Below are positions 3,758-32,000 of a DNA stretch of 32,000 bases, in pieces. Positions within the stretch are counted from its first letter, which is position 1, and each line of letters opens with the position of its first letter. Source of the DNA: Megasphaera elsdenii DSM 20460 (GTDB lineage Bacteria; Bacillota; Negativicutes; Veillonellales; Megasphaeraceae); NCBI RefSeq assembly GCF_003010495.1, contig NZ_CP027570.1, forward strand, positions 1,170,001 through 1,202,000, written 5' to 3'. Position numbers and translations under genes: made by a program. The notes beneath the pieces are model-generated. The model was not told the origin of the DNA, did no database searches, and was given only the letters and a program-made list of their open reading frames with translations.

Positions 3758-4585
3758 ATGGCCATTAAATCATTTAAACCGTACTCCGCTAGCCGCCGTT
3801 TCATGACTGTTTCGACATTCGAAGAAATCACGGCGTCTAAACCGGAAAAATCCTTATTGGCTAAAGTAACCAATAAGGGCGGTCGTAATAACAGCGGCCG
3901 TATGACTGTCCGCCATCAGGGCGGTGGTCACAAACGCCGTTACCGTTTGATCGACTTCAAACGTATTAAAGATAACATCCCGGCAAAAGTTGCGACGATC
4001 GAATACGATCCGAACCGCTCTGCTAACATCGCTCTTCTGTTCTACGCAGATGGCGAAAAGAAATACATCATCGCTCCGAACGGCCTGAAAGTCGGCGACG
4101 TTCTCTACAGCGGTCCTGAATCGGATATCAAGATCGGCAACGCATTGCCGCTCCAGAACATCCCCCTCGGTACGCTCGTACACAACGTCGAACTGAAAAT
4201 CGGCAAAGGCGGCCAGATGGTCCGCTCCGCTGGTGAATCGGCTCAGCTCATGGCTAAAGAAGGCAACTATGCACTGCTCCGCCTTCCGTCGGGCGAACTT
4301 CGTCAGGTACACGTACGCTGCCGCGCTACGATCGGCGTAGTCAGCAACACGGACTATGAAAACATCACCATCGGTAAAGCCGGCCGTTCCCGCTGGAAAG
4401 GCATCCGTCCGGGCAACCGTGGTGTCGTCATGAACCCGTGCGATCATCCGCATGGCGGCGGCGAAGGTAAAGCTCCTGTTGGTCGTAAACGTCCGGTTAC
4501 TCCTTGGGGTAAACCTGCTTATGGCGTTAAGACTCGCGACGCTAAGAAAGCTTCCAATAAATTCATTGTGAAGAGACGTAAATAA
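3758..4585 (+). CDS. rplB: 50S ribosomal protein L2
   Basis: 275 aa with motifs GGGHKRRYR and DHPHGGGEG. Confidence 0.99.
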
Positions 4586-16199: not shown

Positions 16200-16538
16200 A
16201 TGGCTTATAGAAAGTTGGGACGAGACAGCTCCGCACGTAAAGCTTTGCTGCGCAGCATTGTCACCTCTTTATTCCAGCATGAACGCATTGAAACGACAGA
16301 AGCAAAGGCAAAAGAACTTCGCAAAGTCGCTGATAAAATGCTTACCCTCGCAAAACGCGGCGATCTCCACGCTCGCCGTCAGGTCTTGGCATACATGATG
16401 GATGAAGATGTTGTCAAAAAACTGTTTGACGAAATTGCACCGAAATACAAAGATCGTCAGGGCGGTTATACTCGCATCATCAAAACTGGCGTTCGTCAGG
16501 GCGATGCTGCTCCGATGGTAATCATCGAATTAGTATAA
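16200..16538 (+). CDS. rplQ: 50S ribosomal protein L17
   Basis: 112 aa starting [19 protein letters not shown]. Last gene of the alpha operon. Confidence 0.98.
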
Positions 16539-16547
16539 GCTTGTAAG

Positions 16548-16583
16548 AAAAAAGGGGCTGTCGCATGTGCGACAGCCCCTTTT
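16548..16583. terminator. Rho-independent, potentially bidirectional terminator after rplQ
   Basis: A 12-bp perfect stem ggggctgtcgca / tgcgacagcccc (16554..16579) is preceded by A6 and followed by TTTT. Confidence 0.85.
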
Positions 16584-16618
16584 GAGTGGTTAGTGGCTAG
16601 CAGTTAGTAGTTAGCAAA
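16584..16618 (-). repeat. Degenerate 7-bp tandem repeat, the reverse complement of the CCACTAA family (gagtggt tagtggc tagcagt tagtagt tagcaaa)
   Basis: Read directly. Five heptads abut the terminator hairpin. On the minus strand this is the same heptads-then-GC-hairpin layout seen at 18439..18509, 21221..21260 and 25560..25593. Confidence 0.75.
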
Positions 16619-17080
16619 TGGCTCCCCTGATAGGGGAGCTGTCAGCGAAGCTGACTGAGAGGTTCTTACAGCGACCAGTCGTTCATACACTAATCAGGTC
16701 AACATGACATGGTTTTGCGAACGGCGAACAGCGGCTGCGACCGGCCGTTTATCTCGGACTCAGATGCGGCGTTCCGCCGCGACAGACTCAAACCGACAAC
16801 GACGCTTCGGGAAACCCTCAGCGCGTAGCGGGACGCCCTTTGGGCGTCCCCTACGAAATCGCATTCAGGCGATAATAAATAATCCACGGCCCGTGGCCTC
16901 GTGCGTAGGGGCCGTCCCAACGGGCGGCCCGCCGCGAACAATCGGCTATACACCAATCAGGTCAATGTGGCATGGTTTTGCGACCTGCGACCTGCGGCCT
17001 GCGACCGGTGCGCCCTATGAGGGCGCCCACGACCAACCAACCTCTCCGGCCTTTTAGGCCACCTCCCCTATAAGGGGAGG
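16618..17080 (+). repeat. Composite hairpin-dense repeat element, copy A (5' part, truncated by the IS insertion)
   Basis: Colinear with 25064..25507. It is a chain of 10 or more GC-rich stem-loops plus four TGCGRCC heptads (16979..17006). No reading frame is conserved between the copies. Confidence 0.85.
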
Positions 17081-17129
17081 TGGTCCTATGTCAAGATTTC
17101 GGACAAATTAAATTGAGGTTTTTCGTTTC

Positions 17130-18044
17130 TTAGATTCCCAGACGCATATTATGTTTCTGGAAATCAGCATACAGCTTTTCATAGTCATCCGGTGACATGT
17201 AGTTGCAATGGCTATGAATGCGTACGGTGTTGTAAAAGGTATTGATGTATTCAAACACCAACAAGTACGCTTGCTGATAATTTTGAATCTTGAAGCGATT
17301 GAGCCATTCCCGTTTAATCAGGGAGTGGAAGGATTCGATGCAGGCATTGTCCCATGGATAGCCTTTCTTCGAATAGCTGCGGCGCATTTGGGATGTCTCC
17401 CGAATATATGCCTGCGAAACATACTGGCAGCCACGGTCCGAATGGATAACCAACAGCTGTCCGGGTTTCCGGCATTGTTTGGCTTCCTGCAGCATCTTGA
17501 CGATGCCGGCGACGTCCAGATTACGGGCCAGATTCCAGGCGATGATTTTCCTGGAGAACAAATCCATAATGCTTTCCAAATAGACGAAACCTTCAGCTGT
17601 CCAGATATAGGTGATGTCGCTGCACCATACTTGATCCGGTTCTTCAGGATTGAAGCATTCCTGAAGGATATTCACCAGCGCCACGTCAAAGTCACTGTTA
17701 CGGGTCGTTACGGTGTAATGCTTTACCCAGCAGGCCTGAATGCCCATTTGCCGCATGTATACGCCAACTGTGCGTTCAGAGATACTGTCCCCGTTCTGCT
17801 GCATAACTTGGGCAATCTTCGGGGCTCCGTAAATCTGCTTGGAATCGTCGTAGATAGTTTGAATCTTTTTCTTCATCTCCTTGCGGTGCTGGGCCTGTTT
17901 CGATGGTTTGCGCGCCGCCCAGTCATAATATCCTGAAGAAGAAACGTCGAGTTCAGAAAGCACTCCGGACACCGAAAAACGACGTTCTGCCTGATGGGCA
18001 TTTTCGGCTTCTTCCTGGACACTGCGATAGATGGCAATGGTCAT
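17130..18044 (-). CDS. IS3-family transposase OrfB
   Basis: Identical 304-aa product to 107..1021. Confidence 0.93.
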   Translation of the reverse strand: MTIAIYRSVQEEAENAHQAERRFSVSGVLSELDVSSSGYYDWAARKPSKQAQHRKEMKKKIQTIYDDSKQIYGAPKIAQVMQQNGDSISERTVGVYMRQMGIQACWVKHYTVTTRNSDFDVALVNILQECFNPEEPDQVWCSDITYIWTAEGFVYLESIMDLFSRKIIAWNLARNLDVAGIVKMLQEAKQCRKPGQLLVIHSDRGCQYVSQAYIRETSQMRRSYSKKGYPWDNACIESFHSLIKREWLNRFKIQNYQQAYLLVFEYINTFYNTVRIHSHCNYMSPDDYEKLYADFQKHNMRLGI

Positions 18045-18322
18045 TTGTCCAGAATGCTGATAGCTTTTTTTAGGACATTCAACGCATCCTTCGCATCCCG
18101 CAGTTCACGCTGCAGACGGGCGATTTCCTTAGCTTCATCCGAAGCATAGTTGCCGGAACCACGATAAGGCATTTCGCCATTGTCCTTCAGCTGCTTTTGC
18201 CAACGGGACAAGGTTTGTGGAGCAATACCTAGATTCGTAGCACAGCCAACCAAGCCGAGTTCCCGATGTTCATGATAATATTTAACTGCGTTGATTTTGA
18301 ATTCTTTGTTGAATTTTGCCAT
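18041..18322 (-). CDS. IS3-family transposase OrfA
   Basis: Identical 93-aa product to 1018..1299. Confidence 0.9.
   Translation of the reverse strand: MAKFNKEFKINAVKYYHEHRELGLVGCATNLGIAPQTLSRWQKQLKDNGEMPYRGSGNYASDEAKEIARLQRELRDAKDALNVLKKAISILDK
18065..18071 (-). promoter_or_regulatory. -1 frameshift heptamer A_AAA_AAA of IS copy 2
   Basis: Same sequence context as 1042..1048. Confidence 0.75.
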
Positions 18323-18402
18323 ACTGAGGCCTCCTTAGTTAATCCTATTGTACCACCATTAGGAACCTCAGTTTGACTTGTCCTATTTATATGCTAACAC
18401 CA

Positions 18403-18509
18403 AGGCATAACGACGAACGCATCGCCGAAGGCGATAAGCCACGAGCCACTAACCACGAGCCACTAACCACTAACCACTAACCACTAACCACGGGCTCGCT
18501 ACGCGAGCC
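18403..18509 (+). repeat. 3' part of composite repeat copy A: hairpin atcgcc-gaa-ggcgat, eight CCAC(G/T)A(G/A) heptads (18439..18494), and hairpin ggctcgc-tac-gcgagcc (18493..18509)
   Basis: Read directly. It aligns with 25505..25593 once the IS and one AGG copy are removed. Confidence 0.85.
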
Positions 18510-18531
18510 TACCCCAAAAGGAGTGATATAA

Positions 18532-18966
18532 ATGCCATATCGTATGATGTTAGCTGTCAACTTTACACCGGAACGGCTGGAGCTGGTCAAGCTCCTGGCC
18601 CTCTTGACGAAATCAAAGGTCAAAGCGGTTACGGAAGATGAAAAAAGTGAAACCGTCGGCAAAGTCCTGGGACTGACGGACGATGAAATCGCTGAAATTG
18701 CAGCCATGAAACAGGAAACGGAACAGACCAAGGTCCATGAACAGATGAACGAAGACGAAAATCTTCCGCCTGTGACCAAGGAAGCTCTGATTCTCTGTGG
18801 CTTTGACAACAAGGCCGTCAACCTGCTCTTGAGCAGCATCCGCCGGGGGCGTCTGAAGAATGTTCCCCTCAAGGCGATGTTGACGCCGAACAACATTTCC
18901 TGGACTATCGAAACGATTTTGCAGGAATTGTCGAAAGAACACGAATATTTCCATAAAAAGAGGTAA
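18532..18966 (+). CDS. DUF3783-like small protein (function unknown)
   Basis: 144 aa. The C-terminal part (ILCGFDNKAVNLLLSSIRRGRLKNVPLKAMLTPNNISWTIETILQELSKEHEYF) resembles the DUF3783 pattern as I recall it from clostridial proteins. RBS aaaggag. Confidence 0.6.
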   Translation: MPYRMMLAVNFTPERLELVKLLALLTKSKVKAVTEDEKSETVGKVLGLTDDEIAEIAAMKQETEQTKVHEQMNEDENLPPVTKEALILCGFDNKAVNLLLSSIRRGRLKNVPLKAMLTPNNISWTIETILQELSKEHEYFHKKR

Positions 18967-19536: not shown

Positions 19537-19566
19537 TTGACAGGACGGTGGCTTTTATTCTATAGT
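19537..19566 (+). promoter_or_regulatory. Candidate sigma-70-type promoter of the capsule locus
   Basis: TTGACA (19537..19542), 18-nt spacer, TATAGT (19561..19566), about 120 nt upstream of the wzi start. Pattern call only. Confidence 0.5.
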
Positions 19567-21220: not shown

Positions 21221-21260
21221 CCACGAGCCACTAACCACTAACCACGGGGCCTTCGGCCCC
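21221..21260 (+). repeat. Short heptad-plus-hairpin module: ccacgag ccactaa ccactaa ccacggg, overlapping hairpin ggggcc-ttc-ggcccc
   Basis: Read directly. It lies between the wzi stop and the RBS of the next gene. Confidence 0.8.
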
Positions 21261-21275
21261 AAACGGAGAACAATC

Positions 21276-22070
21276 ATGATAGACATTCACTCACATATTT
21301 TATACGATATTGATGATGGCTCTGAATCATTGGACATGTCCCTGCAGATGCTGCGCATGTCTGTGGATTCGGGAGTCACCGATATTATTGCGACGCCTCA
21401 TGTCAATCGACAAGGACACATTCCGTCCTGGCAGACCATCCTTGACAAGGCAGCAGCCCTTCAGGAGGAAGCGGATAAGGCCAATATTCCTATTCGTATC
21501 CATACGGGGGCCGAAGTAGAACTTAACGGCGATACGTTACGTTTCATGAAGGAAAATCACGACGATTATTGTCTGGCCGGCAGCCGCTATGTCATGTTGG
21601 AACTGACGGACCAGTCTCAGCCGGATATTGTGGAAAAGATGATATATGAGTTGCAGATGCGCGGCTTCCTGCCACTTCTGGCCCACGTAGAACGCTATGA
21701 GCGCCTCATGGAACGTCCGGAAACGCTTCTGGCATGGATGAATAAGGGCGTCCTGGCTCAATGCAATACAGGCAGTTTCACGGGCTATTTCGGCTCAAAG
21801 TTGCAACAGCGCGTCCGCGACCTCTACCGCAATAATATGATTCATTTCCTCGGCAGCGACGGTCATCGCGTGGAATTCCGCACGACGGATATCCGTCAGG
21901 CCCATGAAGAATTAGATCGCTTGGCCGCCAAGGAAAAGCCGCATGTCAATCTTTGGAATACAGCGACGCGTAATGCTGAATATATTTTGAAACACCGCGT
22001 CTTTTATCCCGATTTGCCGTCGCATTGGCAAAAAGAGAAAAAAGGCTTTTTCCATCGTCTCTTTGGTTGA
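21276..22070 (+). CDS. cpsB: CpsB/CapC-family (PHP-domain, metal-dependent) protein-tyrosine phosphatase
   Basis: N-terminus MIDIHSHILYDIDDGS...ATPH is typical of this family. Capsule-locus context. Confidence 0.88.
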   Translation: MIDIHSHILYDIDDGSESLDMSLQMLRMSVDSGVTDIIATPHVNRQGHIPSWQTILDKAAALQEEADKANIPIRIHTGAEVELNGDTLRFMKENHDDYCLAGSRYVMLELTDQSQPDIVEKMIYELQMRGFLPLLAHVERYERLMERPETLLAWMNKGVLAQCNTGSFTGYFGSKLQQRVRDLYRNNMIHFLGSDGHRVEFRTTDIRQAHEELDRLAAKEKPHVNLWNTATRNAEYILKHRVFYPDLPSHWQKEKKGFFHRLFG

Positions 22071-24916: not shown

Positions 24917-25600
24917 CCTCCCCTGCGAAGGGGAGGCGCAGGCCGCAGTTCGCAGGCCGCAGGCCGCCTCGGACTCAGATGCCGCTGCGCGGCGACGGAC
25001 TCAAACTGACAACATCGCCTCGAGTAACCCTCGGCTCGTAAAAAACGCCCCTTTGGGGCGCGTATGGCTCCCCTGATAGGGGAGCTGTCAGCGAAGCTGA
25101 CTGAGAGGTTCCTACAGCGACCAGACGGCCATACACCAATCGGGCCAATGTGGCATGATTTTCGCGAACTGCGACCGGCGTTTATCTCGGACTCAGGTGC
25201 CGCTGCGCGGCGTCAGACTCAAACTAACAACGACGCTTCGGGGGTACCCTCAGCGCGTAGCGGGACGCCTTTCCAGGACGTCCCCTACGGAGTCGCATCC
25301 AGGCGATAATAATTATCCACGGCCTGTGGCCTCGTGCGTAGGGGCCGTCCCGGTTAGGGCGGCCCGCCGCGAACAGTCGGCCATATAACTTGCGAGCTAA
25401 TGTGGCATGGTTTTGCGAACTGTGGTCTGCGACCGGCGCGCCCTACAAGGGCGCCCACGACCAACCAACCTCTCCGGCCTTTCGGCCACCTCCCCTATGA
25501 GGGGAGGCTTAACGACGAACGACCTGCGACCGACGCGCCCCCGTGAGGGCGCCTACGAACCACTAGCCACTAGCCACTGGGGCCACCGGCCCCAATCCTC
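24917..25600 (+). repeat. 704-bp intergenic block made entirely of hairpin modules and heptad repeats. It contains composite repeat copy B (25064..25593).
   Basis: Colinear with 16618..17080 plus 18406..18509. It also holds an extra partial module set at 24917..25063, including inverted TGCGRCC heptads (24941..24968) and a duplicated cggactcag-hairpin-gactcaaac module. Confidence 0.88.
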
Positions 25601-25620
25601 ACGAAAGGAAGGAAAAGGTC

Positions 25621-26991
25621 ATGAAGACCCGTGTTTATCCTACGTCACGTAAACTCTTTGGCTTACTCGGAGACGTGACCATCATTACCTTAACTTACAT
25701 ACTCCTGACCTATTTGATTATTCCGCCAGGCGCACGGGCTATGAATCATGCCTTATATTCCGGTATGTTGCCTGTTGTTATCATCTTTTCAGTCATGATG
25801 TTTAGCATCAATGGCCTGTATACCATCGAGCACAAGCGATTCAGCGAAGTCCTCATCAGCCTGGCAGTCAGTCTATTCTTGGTTCTCATCCTCATCATGG
25901 CCTTGAGCTTCGTAATCCATGAATTCGCTTATTCCCGCGTTTTGATTGTCACCAGTACGGCTGTGCAATTCGTCTTGCTCGGTTTGTGGAAGCGGGCCGT
26001 CCAGCATTGGGAACAGAGCCTTCATCCCGTTCGCCAGGTCATGATTATAGGCAATGAAGACGAATGCCGCCATGTCTATTATCGCATGAGTGCTCAGCCA
26101 CAGCTTAAAATGCAGCTCCAGCACGTCATCATGGATCCGCAGACCGATTGGCGCCAGAAATTGGAAGCTTGTGATATCGATACGCTCATCATCTGCTCAG
26201 ATATCCCCATTGCCACGAAAGCCAAAATCGTCAATTATTGTACGGATAAGGAAATTCAACCATACATCATTCCCGGTTCTTATGAAATCTTTTGTAACGG
26301 GGCCATGCTCCAGAAAATCGATGACGTGCCCGTCTTCCGGCCTAAGAGCCTGCGCCTCAGCGTAGAACAGCGGGCGGTCAAGCGCACTGTCGACATCATC
26401 TTGGCTGGCATCGCCGCTATCTGCGCCTTGCCCTTCGCCATCCCCGTCGCCTTGGCCATCAAACTCGGCGACGGCGGTCCCATCCTCTACAGCCAGGTCC
26501 GCGTCGGCCGCTTTGGCAAGGAATATAAGGTTTATAAATTCCGTTCCATGCGCGTCGATGCCGAAAAATATTCCGGTCCCCAGCTGGCCACCGAAGACGA
26601 CCCGCGCATTACCAAAGTCGGCAAATTTATCCGCGCCACCCGCCTCGATGAACTGCCGCAGATCCTCAACGTCCTCAACGGCGACATGAGCCTCGTCGGC
26701 CCGAGACCCGAACGGCCGTACTTCGTCGAACAGTTTAAACAAGAAAACCCTGAATACGCCTATCGCCATAACGTCAAACCGGGTATTACCGGCTTAGCCC
26801 AGGTCTTTGCCAAGTACAACACAACGCCTTATGACAAACTCGTCTACGACCTCATGTACATCGAAAACTACAGCATCTTAGAAGACTTCGTCATCATGAT
26901 CCAGACCATCAAGATCCTAGTCACCAAGAGCGCCACCGAAGGCAAAGACGTCAGCGGCAAAGACCTAGACCTGAGCAAATTTGAACGCTAA
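25621..26991 (+). CDS. Initiating polyprenyl-phosphate glycosyl-1-phosphate transferase (bacterial sugar transferase, WbaP/CpsE-like)
   Basis: 456 aa with N-terminal TM segments and a C-terminal domain carrying KFRSM, DPRITKVGKFIRATRLDELPQ and SLVGPRP. Confidence 0.92.
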   Translation: MKTRVYPTSRKLFGLLGDVTIITLTYILLTYLIIPPGARAMNHALYSGMLPVVIIFSVMMFSINGLYTIEHKRFSEVLISLAVSLFLVLILIMALSFVIHEFAYSRVLIVTSTAVQFVLLGLWKRAVQHWEQSLHPVRQVMIIGNEDECRHVYYRMSAQPQLKMQLQHVIMDPQTDWRQKLEACDIDTLIICSDIPIATKAKIVNYCTDKEIQPYIIPGSYEIFCNGAMLQKIDDVPVFRPKSLRLSVEQRAVKRTVDIILAGIAAICALPFAIPVALAIKLGDGGPILYSQVRVGRFGKEYKVYKFRSMRVDAEKYSGPQLATEDDPRITKVGKFIRATRLDELPQILNVLNGDMSLVGPRPERPYFVEQFKQENPEYAYRHNVKPGITGLAQVFAKYNTTPYDKLVYDLMYIENYSILEDFVIMIQTIKILVTKSATEGKDVSGKDLDLSKFER

Positions 26992-26994
26992 AGC

Positions 26995-27048
26995 CTCCGT
27001 CTCCCCTGAGAAGGGGAGGTGGCCCGAAAGGGCCGGAAGGGTTCTTCC
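26995..27048. repeat. Hairpin module set in reverse orientation: ctcccc-tgagaa-ggggag, ggccc-gaaa-gggcc, ggaag-ggtt-cttcc, followed by a T-rich run
   Basis: Matches the reverse complement of the module at 17040..17080 and 25470..25507. It lies exactly at the GC-content break. It may also terminate transcription, but support for that is weak. Confidence 0.75.
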
Positions 27049-27076
27049 TATTTTTACAAAGGATGGAGTCATTATT

Positions 27077-27862
27077 ATGTTTCATAAATCACCTTTGGTA
27101 AGTGTCATTATGCCTACATATAATTGTGCTGCCTATATTAGCACATCTATTGAATCTGTTATTTCACAAACAGTAACGGATTGGGAAATTCAAATCGTTG
27201 ACGATTGCAGCACGGACAATACCCAATCTGTTTTACAACCTTACTTAAAAAAATATCCCAATATTCATTATTACTGTTTACCTGAAAATGGAGGCCCTGC
27301 TGTGGCGCGAACTGAAGCCATTAAAAGAGCAGCTGGGAAATATATTGCTTTTTTAGATAGCGATGATTTATGGTTCCCTGATAAATTAGAGAAACAAATT
27401 TCCTTTATGGAAAAAAAAGAGGCTGCTTTTTCGTGCACCGCATATGCTCAGATGGATGCTGACGGCAATTCTTTGCACACTGCTTTATATCCACCTGAAC
27501 AAACTGATTATAAACGGTGTATTCGCTTATCGAATCCTATCGGTAATCTGACAGCTATGTATGATCAGGAAGCTTTAGGAAAATTTGCTGTTCCCTTGAT
27601 TAAAAAACGTAATGACTTTGCCCTGTGGCTCCAAATTTTGAAGAAGACGCCATACTGCTACGGTATGCAAGAGGTCTTAGGAACCTATCGGCTCGGTCGG
27701 AAAGGTTCCGTTAGTAGTAATAAGTTGAAGCAAGCTAAATATCACTGGCAGTTATATCGCCAAATTGAAGGTCATAGTCGACTGCAAAGTCTATATGAAT
27801 TAGGTTGTTGGGTTTTGGTAAAAGGTACACATATTGGTCAAAAAAAGAAACGTATTAGGTAA
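27077..27862 (+). CDS. Family 2 glycosyltransferase
   Basis: VSVIMPTYNCAAYI...QIVDDCSTDNT...FLDSDDLW. The ATG at 27077 after RBS ggatggag is preferred. The track start at 26981 runs through the repeat block. Confidence 0.88.
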   Translation: MFHKSPLVSVIMPTYNCAAYISTSIESVISQTVTDWEIQIVDDCSTDNTQSVLQPYLKKYPNIHYYCLPENGGPAVARTEAIKRAAGKYIAFLDSDDLWFPDKLEKQISFMEKKEAAFSCTAYAQMDADGNSLHTALYPPEQTDYKRCIRLSNPIGNLTAMYDQEALGKFAVPLIKKRNDFALWLQILKKTPYCYGMQEVLGTYRLGRKGSVSSNKLKQAKYHWQLYRQIEGHSRLQSLYELGCWVLVKGTHIGQKKKRIR

Positions 27863-27895
27863 TAACCTTGTTGTTATCTTGCTAATGGAGGAAGA

Positions 27896-28936
27896 ATGAT
27901 GAAAATAGCCATATTAGGACCGGTGATAACTAAAAAATATTTTGGTGGGGTGGCTACTTTTGATGAAGGACTTGCCTTTGCTTTTTCACAGTTGGGATAT
28001 GAAGTTCTTATAATTACAACGCAGAGGAGTAAGGTGACCAATCTGTCTTTGAATATTAAACAGGTTTCTAAGTTACAAGTTGTTGCTAATATAAGGAAAT
28101 ATAAACCTGATTTAGTAATTGCATCTTTGCAATATGCTGCTTATTTTCCTTTTATACATTACGGTGTAAAGATATTGTTTTTGCATGGTTTTTTTAATTT
28201 TCAGTCATATGGCATTTTAAAGACCTTATTGGCGGTTGGCGCGACTAAATTTATGGCCAAATATAGTGATAAAATTTTAGCTAATAGTAATTTTACAGCA
28301 ACAATTAATCGTAGAATTTGGAATATACCCGTTGATGGTATCGCGCATCTTGGCGCTGATGAGTGTTTTTTAAAAAAAATATCACAAAACAGGAATTCAG
28401 TAAAAAAGAAATCCGGTCAAATTTTGTTTACGGGAAGACTTGTTCTTAGCAAGAGAATAGATACCATTATTCGGGCCTTATCTTTATTGAACCGAGATGG
28501 TATTGGATATAATTTTGTCCTTGCTGGAGATGGACCTGAATTGTCACATTTGATGAAGCTAGCACAACAATTAGATGTATCTGTCAATTTTATGGGACGG
28601 GTTTCTCATGATGAAATTTATAAATTATATCAAGAATCAGAACTTTTTATTTCTCTTGGGGAATCGGAGTCTTTTGGGTTAACCTATGTTGAAGCTTTAT
28701 TATCTAATTGTAAAATTGTTTGTCCTAGAACGGGTGGACAGGTGGAATTTTTGAATCACTATTCAAAATATGTTGGATTTGTTAATCCGTTAGATGATTT
28801 AAATATTGAGAATACCATAAAGCAATTATTATTAAAACCAACAGAATCCTTTATTTCATTTGATGATTTTGATAAATTTAATTATCGAAAAACTGCACAA
28901 TCTATCGTGAATATTATGTCAAAAGAAAGCGTGTAG
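27896..28936 (+). CDS. GT4-type (Pfam Glycos_transf_1) glycosyltransferase
   Basis: 346 aa with the pattern GRLVLSKRID...GDGPE...SESFGLTYVEAL (EX7E-like). Confidence 0.82.
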   Translation: MMKIAILGPVITKKYFGGVATFDEGLAFAFSQLGYEVLIITTQRSKVTNLSLNIKQVSKLQVVANIRKYKPDLVIASLQYAAYFPFIHYGVKILFLHGFFNFQSYGILKTLLAVGATKFMAKYSDKILANSNFTATINRRIWNIPVDGIAHLGADECFLKKISQNRNSVKKKSGQILFTGRLVLSKRIDTIIRALSLLNRDGIGYNFVLAGDGPELSHLMKLAQQLDVSVNFMGRVSHDEIYKLYQESELFISLGESESFGLTYVEALLSNCKIVCPRTGGQVEFLNHYSKYVGFVNPLDDLNIENTIKQLLLKPTESFISFDDFDKFNYRKTAQSIVNIMSKESV

Positions 28937-28939
28937 GAT

Positions 28940-29749
28940 ATGAAAAAAAAGTATAAATACATATTTGTAGTCCTGTTGTATAAAAATATGGTGGATATAT
29001 TTGATTTAATAAAATCCATTGAAAAAACTTGCGATAATTATCATATTATTTTAGTTAATAGCTTTTTCGATGAGAACACGGAAGAAGAAGCATTGGAAAT
29101 AGCCAGAAATCGAACAGATTGTTCTTTCCTCTCTGTTGAAAATCGTGGATATGGAGCCGGAAATAATGCAGGTGTACAGTATGCACAAGAAAATTTTGAT
29201 TTTGAATTTATTATTATTTGCAATCCAGATACTGTTATTGAAAAATTTGATCACTCTGTTCTTTTTAATTCCAATCAAGCAGCCATTTATGCACCTAAGA
29301 TTATCTCAAGGGATTATAAACGGCAAAATCCGAATTGGGCTTTTCACAGTGATATATTAGAGTATCTCCAGTATATAGCTTGTAAAAAAGAGAATTTATT
29401 AATGGATTATTTTGTTATAGCGATTTTGAAGTTTGCCAGGATTTTGTACAGTTATATAGCGGATATTTTTCGACTAAAAAAAATAAAAGTTGGAAATGCT
29501 CATGGTAGCTTTTTCATTATCTCTAAATCAGCGATAAACATTTTAAAACCACTATTTGATAGTCATATGTTTTTATTTTATGAAGAAGTTTATTTAGGAC
29601 ATAGAGCTTTTTGTAATCACATACCAATATATTATGTCAAAGATATATTCGTTCGTCACAAAGAAGATGGAAGCATGAAACTTTCTAATGTAAATCTTAG
29701 AAAAGAAGCCCATAAATCGGTAATATACTATAATGAACATCGAAAATGA
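28940..29749 (+). CDS. Probable family 2-like glycosyltransferase
   Basis: 269 aa. The N-terminal Rossmann-like segment and NRGYGAGNNAGV...IICNPD resemble GT2 rhamnosyl/glycosyl transferases. Locus context. Confidence 0.6.
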   Translation: MKKKYKYIFVVLLYKNMVDIFDLIKSIEKTCDNYHIILVNSFFDENTEEEALEIARNRTDCSFLSVENRGYGAGNNAGVQYAQENFDFEFIIICNPDTVIEKFDHSVLFNSNQAAIYAPKIISRDYKRQNPNWAFHSDILEYLQYIACKKENLLMDYFVIAILKFARILYSYIADIFRLKKIKVGNAHGSFFIISKSAINILKPLFDSHMFLFYEEVYLGHRAFCNHIPIYYVKDIFVRHKEDGSMKLSNVNLRKEAHKSVIYYNEHRK

Positions 29750-29778
29750 AACACTGTATTCTAAAAAGGAGACCATAG

Positions 29779-31050
29779 ATGATTATATTTATATTTATTG
29801 CTTCCTTGATTCTAATTTATTTTTCTAAATATATAGATTCTAATTTTTTTTCTCCAGTAGGTGTTGTTTCCATTTATTGGTGTCTTTTAGCTATTTTTTC
29901 GTTGGTTGGAACCTTATCTCTATATGAGTGGGATTATTACGGCTTATTGTGGATTTATTTGGGGATACTCTCTTTCAATGTATTTTATGCTATCGGAAGG
30001 CCTATTCGTTTTGTAACATCGTCTCATGTTAATGATGTCAATTTAAGTTCGATTTCAAAATTATCCTGGGCCGTTTTAATATTTTTAATGACTTTGGGAA
30101 TAATTAAATGGGGAGCTCAAGTATATACTAATGGATTTAGCCTTACTGATTTTTTATCACTTGATAATTTAGCAGCGATGAATCATGAATTTGCAGTTAA
30201 TCGTTATAGTGGAAATGATAATGAAGGAGGAATAGTCGGAATCATTATTTCTGTATTGAATGCAATGGTTTATTCAGCACCGCTTTGTGGTGGATTTGCT
30301 TATCCATATGCTGTTACTAGAACACACAAAAAAATAGCCATATTTTCTTTGATTCCGGTTTTCTTAGTGACGATGACTAATAATACGAAAGCTGGGATGA
30401 TTGGAGGATTATTATTATTTATAGACAGCTACCTTATAGGGTATTATTGCAGATATAAGAAATGGCCGTCGATACATATTAAATCCATTTTACTATTGTT
30501 TTTTTCATTTAGTATTTTTTTGAGTATTATGATTTTTTCGATGATGCTTCGTATGGGAGACAGCAGCTTTTCTACAATTTCTATTGTATTACAAAAAATT
30601 ATTGTATATGCATTCGGAAATATCCAGTCCTTTGATATTTGGCTTTCGCAAGATTATTATTGGATGCAAGATTACTCTTTTGGCGCGATGACATTTCTAG
30701 GAATTTCTAATGTACTTGGGCTTGTACAACGTGTACAAGGTGTTTATACGTCCTTACTAGGGACATCAAGTAATGTATATACTGTATTTAGAGGAATTGT
30801 TGAGGATTTTGGCATTATTGGAGGCATAATATTTATATCTCTACAAGGATTTTTTCTAAGGATTGCCATTAATTCAATTCACTCTTCATATAATCCTTTT
30901 ATTTCAGTGCCTATTGCGATGAGCATTCTTTTCTTTTTTTTGTATGGAATGATTATTTCGCCATGGACATATCTTTCTTTTATAGTAGCATTTTTTATAG
31001 TATTAGTTTATGTTTTTATTGCGTATCATCATATAGATAAAAATACTTGA
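29779..31050 (+). CDS. wzy: Oligosaccharide repeat-unit (O-antigen/capsule) polymerase
   Basis: 423 aa, highly hydrophobic with about 10 or more predicted TM segments, very AT-rich, and located between the GTs and the flippase. Called mainly from topology and context. Confidence 0.6.
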   Translation: MIIFIFIASLILIYFSKYIDSNFFSPVGVVSIYWCLLAIFSLVGTLSLYEWDYYGLLWIYLGILSFNVFYAIGRPIRFVTSSHVNDVNLSSISKLSWAVLIFLMTLGIIKWGAQVYTNGFSLTDFLSLDNLAAMNHEFAVNRYSGNDNEGGIVGIIISVLNAMVYSAPLCGGFAYPYAVTRTHKKIAIFSLIPVFLVTMTNNTKAGMIGGLLLFIDSYLIGYYCRYKKWPSIHIKSILLLFFSFSIFLSIMIFSMMLRMGDSSFSTISIVLQKIIVYAFGNIQSFDIWLSQDYYWMQDYSFGAMTFLGISNVLGLVQRVQGVYTSLLGTSSNVYTVFRGIVEDFGIIGGIIFISLQGFFLRIAINSIHSSYNPFISVPIAMSILFFFLYGMIISPWTYLSFIVAFFIVLVYVFIAYHHIDKNT

Positions 31051-31069
31051 ATATATTACGAGGTTTTTT

Positions 31070-32000
31070 ATGATTACCAAGACGATGAGTAAGGCCATTA
31101 GCGGTGTTATTTTATTTACCCTTATAGCCAAGATATTAGGTTTTCTCCGAGAAGTGACATTGTCTTACTATTTTGGTGCGACTGGCATTTCAGATGCATA
31201 TTTAATTTCCCAAACGATTCCTGGAACTCTTTTTCAGTTTGTCGGAACTGGATTAACTACATGTTTCATCCCTATATATTACAAATTACTTAACCAAGAT
31301 GGGGATAATAAAGCAAATTATTTTACTAACGCTATTATTACTTTGGTATTAAGCTTTTCGACAGCCATTATTATTTTAATTTGGATTTTTACTCCTACCA
31401 TTGTTAAATTATTTGCTATGGGATTTAATGGGGATACCTTATATTATGCCTGTCAGTTTACCAGAATTGGTGTGCTGAGCCTCTATTTTTCCACTTTTAT
31501 TTATGTATATAATAGCTACTTACAAGCAAATAATATATTTACGCCCACTGCTTTTGCCGCTATTCCTAATAGTATTTTTATTATATTATCTATTATTTTA
31601 GGATCTTTTTTTAATATATGGATTTTATCAATTGGAAGTACGTTAGCTGTAGGGGTTCAGCTATTATTTTTATTTTATCCGATACATAAACTGAGATTTC
31701 ATTTCCATTTCAATTTTAATTGGAAAGATGATTCAGTTCGTGAATTTTTTTGCTTATTAGGGCCGGTAATTATTGGGGTTTCTGTAAATGAATTAAACAC
31801 ACTAGTAGATCGAACCTTAGCTTCTCAAATATCTGTCGGCGGGATATCATCGTTAACGTATGCGAATAGTTTGATAATGCTAATTCAAGGAGGAATTGTT
31901 CAACCTATTGCAACGGTTTGTTATCCTAAAATCACTCATTATATTTCGATTAGAGATTCTAAAAGCGCTAAAAATATTGTAGAACAAACATTAAATTTTA
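31070..32000 (+). CDS. MurJ/MviN-family (MOP superfamily) polysaccharide or lipid-linked oligosaccharide flippase, 3'-truncated by the window end
   Basis: Not in the ORF track because no stop falls within the window. The frame is open by hand translation from the ATG at 31070 to 32000. The N-terminus KILGFLREVTLSYYFGATGISDAYLISQTIP and the later LGPVIIGVSVNELNTLVDRTLAS..GGISSLTYAN match MurJ-family patterns. Confidence 0.8.
   Translation, partial: MITKTMSKAISGVILFTLIAKILGFLREVTLSYYFGATGISDAYLISQTIPGTLFQFVGTGLTTCFIPIYYKLLNQDGDNKANYFTNAIITLVLSFSTAIIILIWIFTPTIVKLFAMGFNGDTLYYACQFTRIGVLSLYFSTFIYVYNSYLQANNIFTPTAFAAIPNSIFIILSIILGSFFNIWILSIGSTLAVGVQLLFLFYPIHKLRFHFHFNFNWKDDSVREFFCLLGPVIIGVSVNELNTLVDRTLASQISVGGISSLTYANSLIMLIQGGIVQPIATVCYPKITHYISIRDSKSAKNIVEQTLNF

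Follow-up and report, generated by a model that had tools for sequence, protein, structure and literature searches.

Three genes in a stretch of the Megasphaera elsdenii DSM 20460 genome are preceded by the same module, in which a run of tandem heptanucleotides leads into a GC-rich hairpin, a ribosome-binding site (RBS) and a start codon. The stretch analyzed, hereafter the window, comprises 32,000 nt of contig NZ_CP027570.1 (assembly GCF_003010495.1, positions 1,170,001 to 1,202,000, forward strand) and is numbered from its first letter. We conclude, with a probability of about 0.6, that the module is not a gene-specific regulatory site but the gene-facing border of a modular, lineage-specific repeat in the intergenic DNA of M. 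elsdenii. In this repeat GC-rich palindromic units, similar to those of repetitive extragenic palindromes (REP), bacterial interspersed mosaic elements (BIME) or BOX elements, are interleaved with heptanucleotide microsatellites. The heptads are slippage-prone simple-sequence repeats (SSRs) whose number and unit composition drift among strains, and the mosaic blocks around them are gained and lost. The hairpin beside the RBS belongs to the palindromic units of the mosaic, and sister species as well as some strains do without the module as a whole.

All three modules lie on the + strand. At site i, eight heptads (CCACGAG CCACTAA CCACGAG (CCACTAA)x4 CCACGGG; 18439-18494) are followed by the hairpin GGGCUCGC-UAC-GCGAGCCU (18492-18510, -14 kcal/mol), whose 5' arm overlaps the final heptad, by a GGAG at 18520 and by the ATG of a DUF3783 gene at 18532. 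Site ii is found in the wzi-cpsB intercistronic spacer and consists of four heptads (21221-21248), the hairpin GGGGCC-TTC-GGCCCC (21246-21260) and an RBS at 21265, with the cpsB ATG at 21276. Three heptads, CCACTAG CCACTAG CCACTGG (25560-25580), form site iii together with a hairpin with the core GGGGCC-ACC-GGCCCC (25578-25594), ahead of a transferase ATG at 25621. The genes downstream of sites i, ii and iii encode a DUF3783 protein, the CpsB phosphatase and a Bac_transf initiating sugar transferase. The heptad consensus at all three sites is CCAC[GT]A[AG], and each time the terminal unit (CCACGGG or CCACTGG) donates the first bases of the GC hairpin. A GGAG-type RBS and the ATG follow 15-27 nt past the hairpin, so the heptad runs stop 27-40 nt before the ATG, with the hairpin and the GGAG-type Shine-Dalgarno (SD) sequence in between. 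No T-tract lies 3' of the hairpins at sites i, ii and iii. A reading made from the letters alone (the sequence-only reading) had described this three-fold layout, the counts of 8, 4 and 3, the merging of the last heptad into the hairpin and the missing T-tracts exactly as we find them.

This arrangement is far from random. The two-heptad pattern CCACKRRCCACKRR has 12 matches in the window, all on the + strand and all at sites i-iii, where 0.01 would be expected, and none of 100 shuffled sequences reached that number. Tandem Repeats Finder (TRF) likewise detects arrays of period 7 in the window. Both the program and the pattern search thus reveal head-to-tail 7-nt copies beyond chance, as in heptanucleotide SSRs. 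As RNA, the heptad run alone has a predicted minimum free energy (MFE) of 0, i.e. it is unstructured, while the hairpins of sites i, ii and iii are predicted at -14.0, -12.7 and -13.8 kcal/mol (z-scores between -3.1 and -3.9).

Comparison among strains gave direct evidence at orthologous loci for the slippage-type copy variation that the sequence-only reading had expected. We compared the window with ten contigs that encode an identical DUF3783 protein (L121-L130) and with the metagenome contig L250. In these 11 other genomes site i contains 8, 6, 5, 5, 5, 4, 4, 5, about 5, 4 and 11 units, the approximate value belonging to an allele with a 1-nt deletion; over 12 M. elsdenii genomes, the window included, the range is 4-11 units. 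The order of the CGAG, CGAA and TAA units differs among strains, and L126 contains CGAG and CGAA units only, without any TAA or TAG. UAG is absent from site i in every strain compared. In the 11 other genomes hardly any change is seen in the RBS or in the two hairpins, the small flanking one and the terminal one. Site i therefore shows the copy-number polymorphism at an orthologous locus with conserved flanks that characterizes a variable-number tandem repeat. Site ii varies between 4 and 5 units and site iii between 2 and 3, with 2 in L125. L126 and L129 carry other heptads (CAAACTA/AAAACTA) and the hairpin ggggcctgcagcccc at site iii, and L122 and L130 have no module before the transferase gene, where an AT-rich promoter-like region is found instead.

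The larger repeat that carries these heptads is visible in the surrounding spacers. Our M. elsdenii sample consists of the ~32 kb window and scattered contigs, and there are three mosaic regions within the window. The spacers 16540-17080, 18403-18531, 24917-25620 and 1380-1560 are built from small GC-rich palindromes interleaved with other heptad runs, and each of these other heptad families precedes a palindrome. Short GC-rich palindromes in variable order in extragenic DNA are what is meant by REP/BIME-like. Copy A of the mosaic begins with a chain of GC-rich palindromic units and TGCGACC x4 at 16978-17006 (5' part, 16618-17080, +) and ends with an AACGACG/AACG heptad remnant and the hairpin atcgcc-gaa-ggcgat at 18421-18435 (3' part, 18403-18438, +). 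Copy B (24917-25559, +) is located between the tyrosine-kinase and sugar-transferase genes and contains palindromic units along with runs of CGCAGGC x4 (24937-24967) and CTGCGRC (near 25414-25437). A further segment in reverse orientation (1380-1560, -) with GCCTGCG x3 at 1538-1559 adjoins the first copy of an IS3-family insertion sequence (IS) (D6, D17). Blocks D2, D4, D5, D7, D9, D11, D14 and D15 of copy A match 25064-25507 at 87-95%, and 16618-17080 together with 18403-18531 is paralogous to 25064-25620 with an overall identity of 78%. Sites i and iii thus terminate, on the 3' side, two paralogous copies of a single composite repeat of ~570 nt.

Whole blocks of the mosaic are present in some strains and absent from others, which changes the rplQ-DUF3783 spacer from 257 to 879 nt. 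The wzi-cpsB spacer measures 62 nt in the window strain and ~680 nt in L125, L126 and L129, where a full mosaic stands ahead of five heptads. This long form ends like site i, in '...ggggaggcataacgaYgaacg..atcgccgaaggcgataag + heptads + hairpin'; the edge shared by site i and the long spacers may also be written '...ggggaggcataacga.gaacg..atcgccgaaggcgataag'. The hairpin is weakened (gggaccttaggcccc) in two of these three spacers. Since copy number, unit type and spacer blocks vary around nearly invariant flanks, we regard the module as a slippage-prone microsatellite in a recombining modular repeat. This agrees with an alternative already named in the sequence-only reading, a microsatellite 'carried by the larger repeat'. 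Gain and loss of blocks may proceed by recombination between dispersed short repeats. The capsule locus around sites ii and iii is itself strain-variable: L122 and L130 run from a NUDIX gene to the sugar transferase without wzi, cpsB, wza and wzc, and in L123 and L127 the whole capsule locus is absent.

The sister species place the module in time. We examined DUF3783 orthologues with 94, 89, 84, 78 and 68% protein identity, the last from an organism named Megasphaera cerevisiae by its source. In all five sister lineages DUF3783 lies 61-101 nt past rplQ and the spacer consists of terminator and RBS only, therefore the module at site i is a recent acquisition of M. elsdenii. An ancient conserved leader of DUF3783 was rejected on the same evidence. 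The 94% relative (L255, 5192-5435) carries a related mosaic in the wzi-cpsB spacer, in which the hairpin ggggccccggcccc is preceded by AACGACN heptads, not CCACNNN. In the mosaics of M. elsdenii, the 'aacgacgaacg' motif seems to be what is left of such an AACGACN array.

The same comparisons bear on a proposal of the sequence-only reading, that the regularly spaced triplets form a binding site for an oligomeric triplet-recognizing RNA-binding protein of the HutP or TRAP kind, through which the three genes would be regulated. The 7-nt period does give triplets with 4-nt spacers, and site iii reads UAG-N4-UAG. However, the periodic triplet is not conserved, as UAA, GAG, GAA and UAG replace each other among sites and strains, L126 has neither UAA nor UAG at site i, and the units can be as few as 2 (L125, site iii). 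HutP recognizes two clusters of three UAG (NAG) with 4-nt spacers that overlap a terminator upstream of hut genes, with hutP adjacent; site iii offers 1-2 UAG, and the neighbors of the modules are DUF3783, NUDIX and capsule genes. TRAP requires 9-11 GAG/UAG triplets 2-3 nt apart, whereas the modules have 2-11 mixed units at a spacing of 4 nt. Neither a competing terminator/antiterminator structure nor a T-tract accompanies the modules, which are also missing before DUF3783 in sister species and before the transferase in some strains, and the same heptads are found inverted in 3' regions and across many unrelated phyla. A HutP- or TRAP-like site thus fails each defining feature that could be tested. 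It is largely refuted by the strain comparison, and we consider it extremely improbable. The likeness to the RNA sites of HutP and TRAP lies only in the periodicity, that is, in regularly spaced triplets in a leader; triplet identity, copy number, genetic context and conservation differ, as does the spacing in the case of TRAP.

A second alternative concerns expression. The best sigma-70-like promoter of the capsule operon, TTGACA-18-TATAGT with 11/12 matches, is located upstream of wzi (19537-19566, +), so transcripts of the capsule operon probably include sites ii and iii as intercistronic segments; site i has the rplQ terminator on one side and DUF3783 on the other. The window scan found no sigma-70-like promoter inside the mosaics, and a mosaic promoter driving the downstream genes was rejected for want of such a match. 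The mosaics fold much better than shuffled sequence and owe their long-range stems to inverted heptad runs. For the 709-nt site iii spacer (24917-25625) the MFE is -335 kcal/mol (z -7.5), with a predicted long-range stem between the 5' CGCAGGC run and the 3' CTGCGRC run. In the 274-nt spacer of L122, GUGGUUAG is predicted to pair with CUAACCAC (z -6.9), and the predicted partner of the downstream CCACUAA run in this strain is the shortened inverted run after rplQ. The module might accordingly be a tunable, contingency-type element of the 5' untranslated region (5'-UTR) or intercistronic RNA, whose heptad number sets the expression of the downstream gene, notably of cpsB and the sugar transferase, through leader length or through pairing with an upstream inverted G-rich run and processing of the duplex by a double-strand RNase. 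Capsule loci are classic targets of phase variation, copy number is hypervariable among strains at all three sites, sites ii and iii would be transcribed from the only good promoter of the operon at 19537, and an upstream inverted G-rich run is predicted to pair with the C-rich run. A precedent exists in the (ATCTTTC)n 5'-UTR of hmw1A, on which RNase III acts (PMC12721329). Nevertheless, the module also precedes the DUF3783/NUDIX pair, for which there is no obvious need of phase variation, and the other heptad families and palindromes of the mosaic are equally variable. In the window, sites ii and iii have no inverted CCAC-type partner nearby, and shifts of 7 nt in a G-free, unstructured spacer before a strong hairpin would bring no obvious change of RBS access. 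We therefore think a contingency role unlikely, though it deserves consideration.

The orientation of the runs relative to genes follows a rule that extends well beyond Megasphaera. In a set of one genome per species, CCACTARCCACTARCCAC had at least 120 matches, mostly in phyla other than that of Megasphaera; among the matches listed are Planctomycetota, Acidobacteriota, Chloroflexota, cyanobacteria, Victivallales, Bacteroidota, Proteobacteria and Megasphaera. Metagenomes scanned for CCACGARCCACKARCCAC gave at least as many matches as are listed, again mostly from other phyla. The cross-phylum matches listed are true arrays of 3-38 units and often adjoin other heptad arrays or an inverted partner. 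Many of these loci bring several heptad families together, for example CCCTGAT, CCCTAAT, GGGACTA, GTAACCC and GGTAATT. Arrays were oriented with the C-rich strand on top and gene borders were counted within 30 nt of each end, using genes called by a self-trained coding scorer that recovered most known M. elsdenii genes in a test locus. The 3' end of 131 CCACTAR arrays among the matches listed adjoins 29 gene starts and 43 ends of opposite-strand genes, compared with 5 starts and 12 ends at the 5' end. For 128 CCACGAR arrays among the matches listed, the corresponding numbers are 17 starts and 24 opposite-strand ends at the 3' end, and 2 starts and 7 ends at the 5' end. Binomial p values are 4e-5, 3e-5 and 3e-9 for the CCACTAR contrasts and range from 3e-3 to 3e-9 over all contrasts. 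Distances from the array are 1-23 nt for start codons, which lie past it, and -18 to +7 nt for stop codons. A first count based on open reading frames (ORFs) was open to distortion by shadow ORFs in high-GC genomes, and it was redone with the scorer and with a test independent of gene calls, in which inverted partners were located on the 5' side of C-rich runs in 21 cases vs 2, and in 19 vs 3. Other heptad units in the same loci show the same trend, to which we give less weight, as stop-free G-sense arrays can swallow ORF starts.

Megasphaera-like contigs and the window follow the same rule. In the contigs, G-sense runs come directly past stop codons or terminators (L036, L142/L217, L219, L221, L248, L140/L240), and C-sense runs occur in leaders (L080, L134, L223 and a recurrent TATAAT-proximal unit). 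The window has G-rich sense after rplQ and C-rich sense before DUF3783, cpsB and the transferase. The strand polarity published for other heptamers by Rehm et al. 2015 (PMC4692102) is thus found in the window, in the Megasphaera-like contigs and in the cross-phylum sets. A bias in orientation and distance to genes does exist in the contigs and across phyla. The recurrent Megasphaera-like unit, 'cattcgagTATAATggcaggcttttacga' + (CCACGAR)3-13 + 'tttttccacgagccgagggtcactcgaggc', is seen in L143 (101-134 and 1526-1558), L153, L176, L226, L223 and L080, and its heptads begin near the transcription start that the TATAAT box would give. In many post-gene arrays the first TAG of (YTAGTGG)n is the stop codon of the gene (e.g. 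L020, L046, L073, L075, L092).

The polarity rule holds across many phyla, including for heptamers that cannot form quadruplexes, and therefore it is probably independent of G-quadruplex (G4) structures. Stop codons in six frames were also rejected as the key feature. A stop triplet does occur in each CCACTAR unit (TAA or TAG; TAG on the complement strand), and 7 and 3 share no common factor; however, site i of L126 consists only of CGAG/CGAA units, and stop-free CCACGAR arrays keep the same polarity. A GC hairpin within 33 nt 3' of the array was found in 5/120 and 4/117 cases, no more commonly than on the 5' side, and the hairpin was rejected as a universal part of heptad arrays. An exception is the Desulfobulbia metagenome-assembled genome CAZDYX01 (L037 near 3819-3880; L081), which repeats the three-part layout in an unrelated phylum, with a CCACTAR run whose last unit, CCACTGC, merges into the GC hairpin ggccaacggccgc before a start codon.

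One way to explain the polarity is that the arrays are generic gene-border RNA elements whose C-rich strand always points 5'->3' into a coding region. They might load Rho on untranslated or antisense read-in RNA or serve as a CA-rich, translation-enhancing leader, and the hairpin would be a processing stop or 5' stabilizer. A single rule would then cover starts and stops, since the C-rich 3' end abuts the coding boundary (72 vs 17 and 41 vs 9 within 30 nt among the matches listed), at the short distances given above. The 56-nt run of site i has 24 C and 7 G and zero predicted structure, non-CCAC heptads in the same loci share the polarity, and heptads incapable of G-quadruplexes obey it too, so G4 is not the cause. 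On the other hand, the idea is purely inferential, runs of 14-21 nt such as site iii are shorter than known rut sites, and some arrays lie upstream of promoters and not in leaders (L171, L134). Moreover, a canonical Rho terminator predicts C-rich RNA after stops, the opposite of what is observed. Gene-border elements of this kind are in our view decidedly unlikely. A broader version, to which we likewise give little credence and which we rate as quite unlikely, joins this to expression: the arrays would be a phylum-spanning polar gene-border class acting on RNA by Rho loading or as a structure-free landing site for ribosomes, and their coupling to a hairpin in M. elsdenii would create a length-tunable leader in which slippage diversifies capsule expression between cells.

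Under the lineage-specific repeat that we favor, polarity would arise because the element is tolerated, and possibly mildly useful, in one orientation only. Before a start codon the sense strand carries C-rich, G-poor repeats; these contain neither AUG, GUG nor UUG, lack SD-like runs of G and do not fold on themselves, and may thus serve as an inert single-stranded stretch that keeps the RBS accessible. The G-rich repeats, with a GUG in each unit, would be confined to 3' regions by the false starts it could provide. The stem-loops may act generically, as structural barriers or stabilizers in polycistronic mRNA. Several points weigh against this interpretation. A real regulatory effect of the module is possible, and selection, not recent common descent, could be the reason why the site i hairpin and the order heptad-hairpin-RBS are strictly conserved in all M. 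elsdenii genomes. The false-start argument covers start codons and not the avoidance of C-rich arrays after stops (43 vs 12), for which possible causes are a rule involving Rho or growth of the arrays with a polarity at the DNA level. In addition, the cross-phylum gene calls come from a simple self-trained ORF scorer and not from curated annotation.

The remaining features of the window complete the picture. It holds a ribosomal protein operon ending in rplQ (16200-16538) and the Wzi/CpsB/Wza/Wzc capsule cluster. The intrinsic terminator of rplQ (16550-16583, +) is a palindrome of 16 bp (16550-16565/16568-16583, 100% complementary) flanked by an A-run and a T-run, and as judged from its sequence it could work in both directions. 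Directly past it lies an inverted heptad run (16585-16616, -) that had escaped the sequence-only reading and reads GTGGTTA GTGGCTA GCAGTTA GTAGTTA on the + strand. This run is G-rich in the sense of rplQ, has no gene downstream on the minus strand and forms the left boundary of the mosaic, so that the rplQ-DUF3783 mosaic is bracketed by inverted heptad runs. It is cut down to gagtggttagc in L122 and L127. Rfam gave no match in the window at gathering thresholds; at E<=1 the only match was BjrC68 (16545-16606, -; 22.4 bits vs a gathering score of 39, E 0.029), located over the inverted heptads and the terminator of rplQ. The hairpin of the terminator is the most likely source of this match, which was treated as noise, and a known RNA family was rejected. 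From 27000 to 32000 the GC content falls to ~30%, which suggests horizontally acquired, serotype-specific glycosyltransferases.

Copy A of the mosaic is split by an IS3-family insertion (17081-18402, -; orfA 93 aa, orfB 304 aa) with the 3-bp target duplication AGG. IS-free strains read through the site uninterrupted (ggggaggcataacgacg), and L124 (GCA_000283495.2) carries the IS at the same place as the window. An identical second copy of 1322 bp (58-1379, -) has the target duplication GAA. Both copies sit within palindromic sequence of the mosaic, with 3-bp duplications GAA and AGG, which suggests that this element prefers palindromic repeats as targets. IS1397 targets BIMEs.

M. elsdenii is a lactate utilizer of the rumen and gut and is used as a probiotic. 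The repeat explains why intergenic spacers, those of the capsule operon included, differ by hundreds of bases between strains with identical flanking proteins. Mosaic sites can be flagged as assembly breakpoints and as possible strain-typing markers or sources of expression heterogeneity. Furthermore, the start/stop strand polarity of G-quadruplex-type heptamers extends to CCACNNN heptamers across many phyla, and the rule needs another explanation, such as false-start avoidance, Rho or polar array growth. The interest of the system lies in strain-level dynamics inside a capsule operon and in non-quadruplex heptamers that share a published polarity rule.

Polar intergenic heptameric repeats and REP/BIME-like mosaics are both known kinds of element, to which the M. 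elsdenii module is newly added. A literature search for CCACTAA, CCACTAG and their complements found no mention of them, and a search on M. elsdenii had nothing on these repeats among the matches listed. As cited in PMC4679880, Mrazek et al. 2007 found that heptanucleotides outnumber every other class of long SSR in many prokaryotes. Closest to the M. elsdenii runs are two members of this heptanucleotide class, the polar intergenic heptamers GGGAATC of Xanthomonas and GGGGA(T/C)T of Nostoc (Rehm et al. 2015, PMC4692102). Their G-rich strand is coding within 50 bp after a stop, overlaps included, and non-coding within 50 bp before a start; they form inverted pairs, most are transcribed and their loci are genomically stable (PMC4692102). 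Both are intergenic tandem 7-nt units with a few to ~10 copies per site and inverted pairs, and the strand rule is identical for CCAC[GT]A[AG]. In contrast to the Rehm heptamers, the complement of the M. elsdenii unit has no tracts of G3-4 and hence no capacity for a G-quadruplex, which takes four or more runs of at least three G; the longest G run in TTAGTGG and CTCGTGG is GG. The M. elsdenii runs also differ in lying within a palindrome mosaic and leading into a GC hairpin, and their copy number and surroundings are strongly strain-variable, whereas the loci of the Rehm repeats are stable. A Nostoc preprint speculates on regulatory roles of start-proximal heptamers.

Marine Beggiatoaceae, cyanobacteria and Bacteroidetes carry forward runs of TAACTGA just before start codons (MacGregor 2015, PMC4679880); for these repeats of unknown function, roles at the post-transcriptional level were suggested. 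Like the CCACNNN arrays they have a scattered phylogenetic distribution, and the minus strand of the run at 16585-16616 reads TAACTAC TAACTGC, which is near the TAACTGA unit. TAACTGA runs overlap the position of the RBS, often in genes without an SD, while in M. elsdenii a hairpin and a good SD lie in between. At sites i-iii no run ends a few nt from the start in place of the SD, but a start-proximal layout (1-23 nt) is seen in many cross-phylum CCACTAR arrays. The unit sequence differs, and a palindrome mosaic is not described there (PMC4679880). In Haemophilus influenzae, (ATCTTTC)n in the 5'-UTR of hmw1A and hmw2A forms a long hairpin with a G-rich region that is cleaved by RNase III; at least 11 repeats make up one hairpin arm and expression is inversely tied to repeat number (PMC12721329). 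The modules share with this system a 7-nt SSR, copy-number variation and predicted pairing with a G-rich segment; the M. elsdenii runs are shorter, and transcription of the leader is here deduced from operon position and the promoter at 19537.

The mosaics themselves have their nearest counterparts in modular extragenic palindromic elements. REP/BIME of enterobacteria and BOX of pneumococcus are mosaics of this type. A genome with REP/BIME typically has tens to hundreds of them, together with a cognate RAYT (Y1 transposase). They share with those of M. elsdenii GC-rich imperfect palindromes in variable order and number, an extragenic location that includes operon interiors, variability among strains and the lack of a T-tract, and insertion of the IS3-family element into the mosaics recalls that of IS1397 into BIMEs. 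Heptad microsatellites are not part of BIME or BOX, and the likeness is one of architecture.

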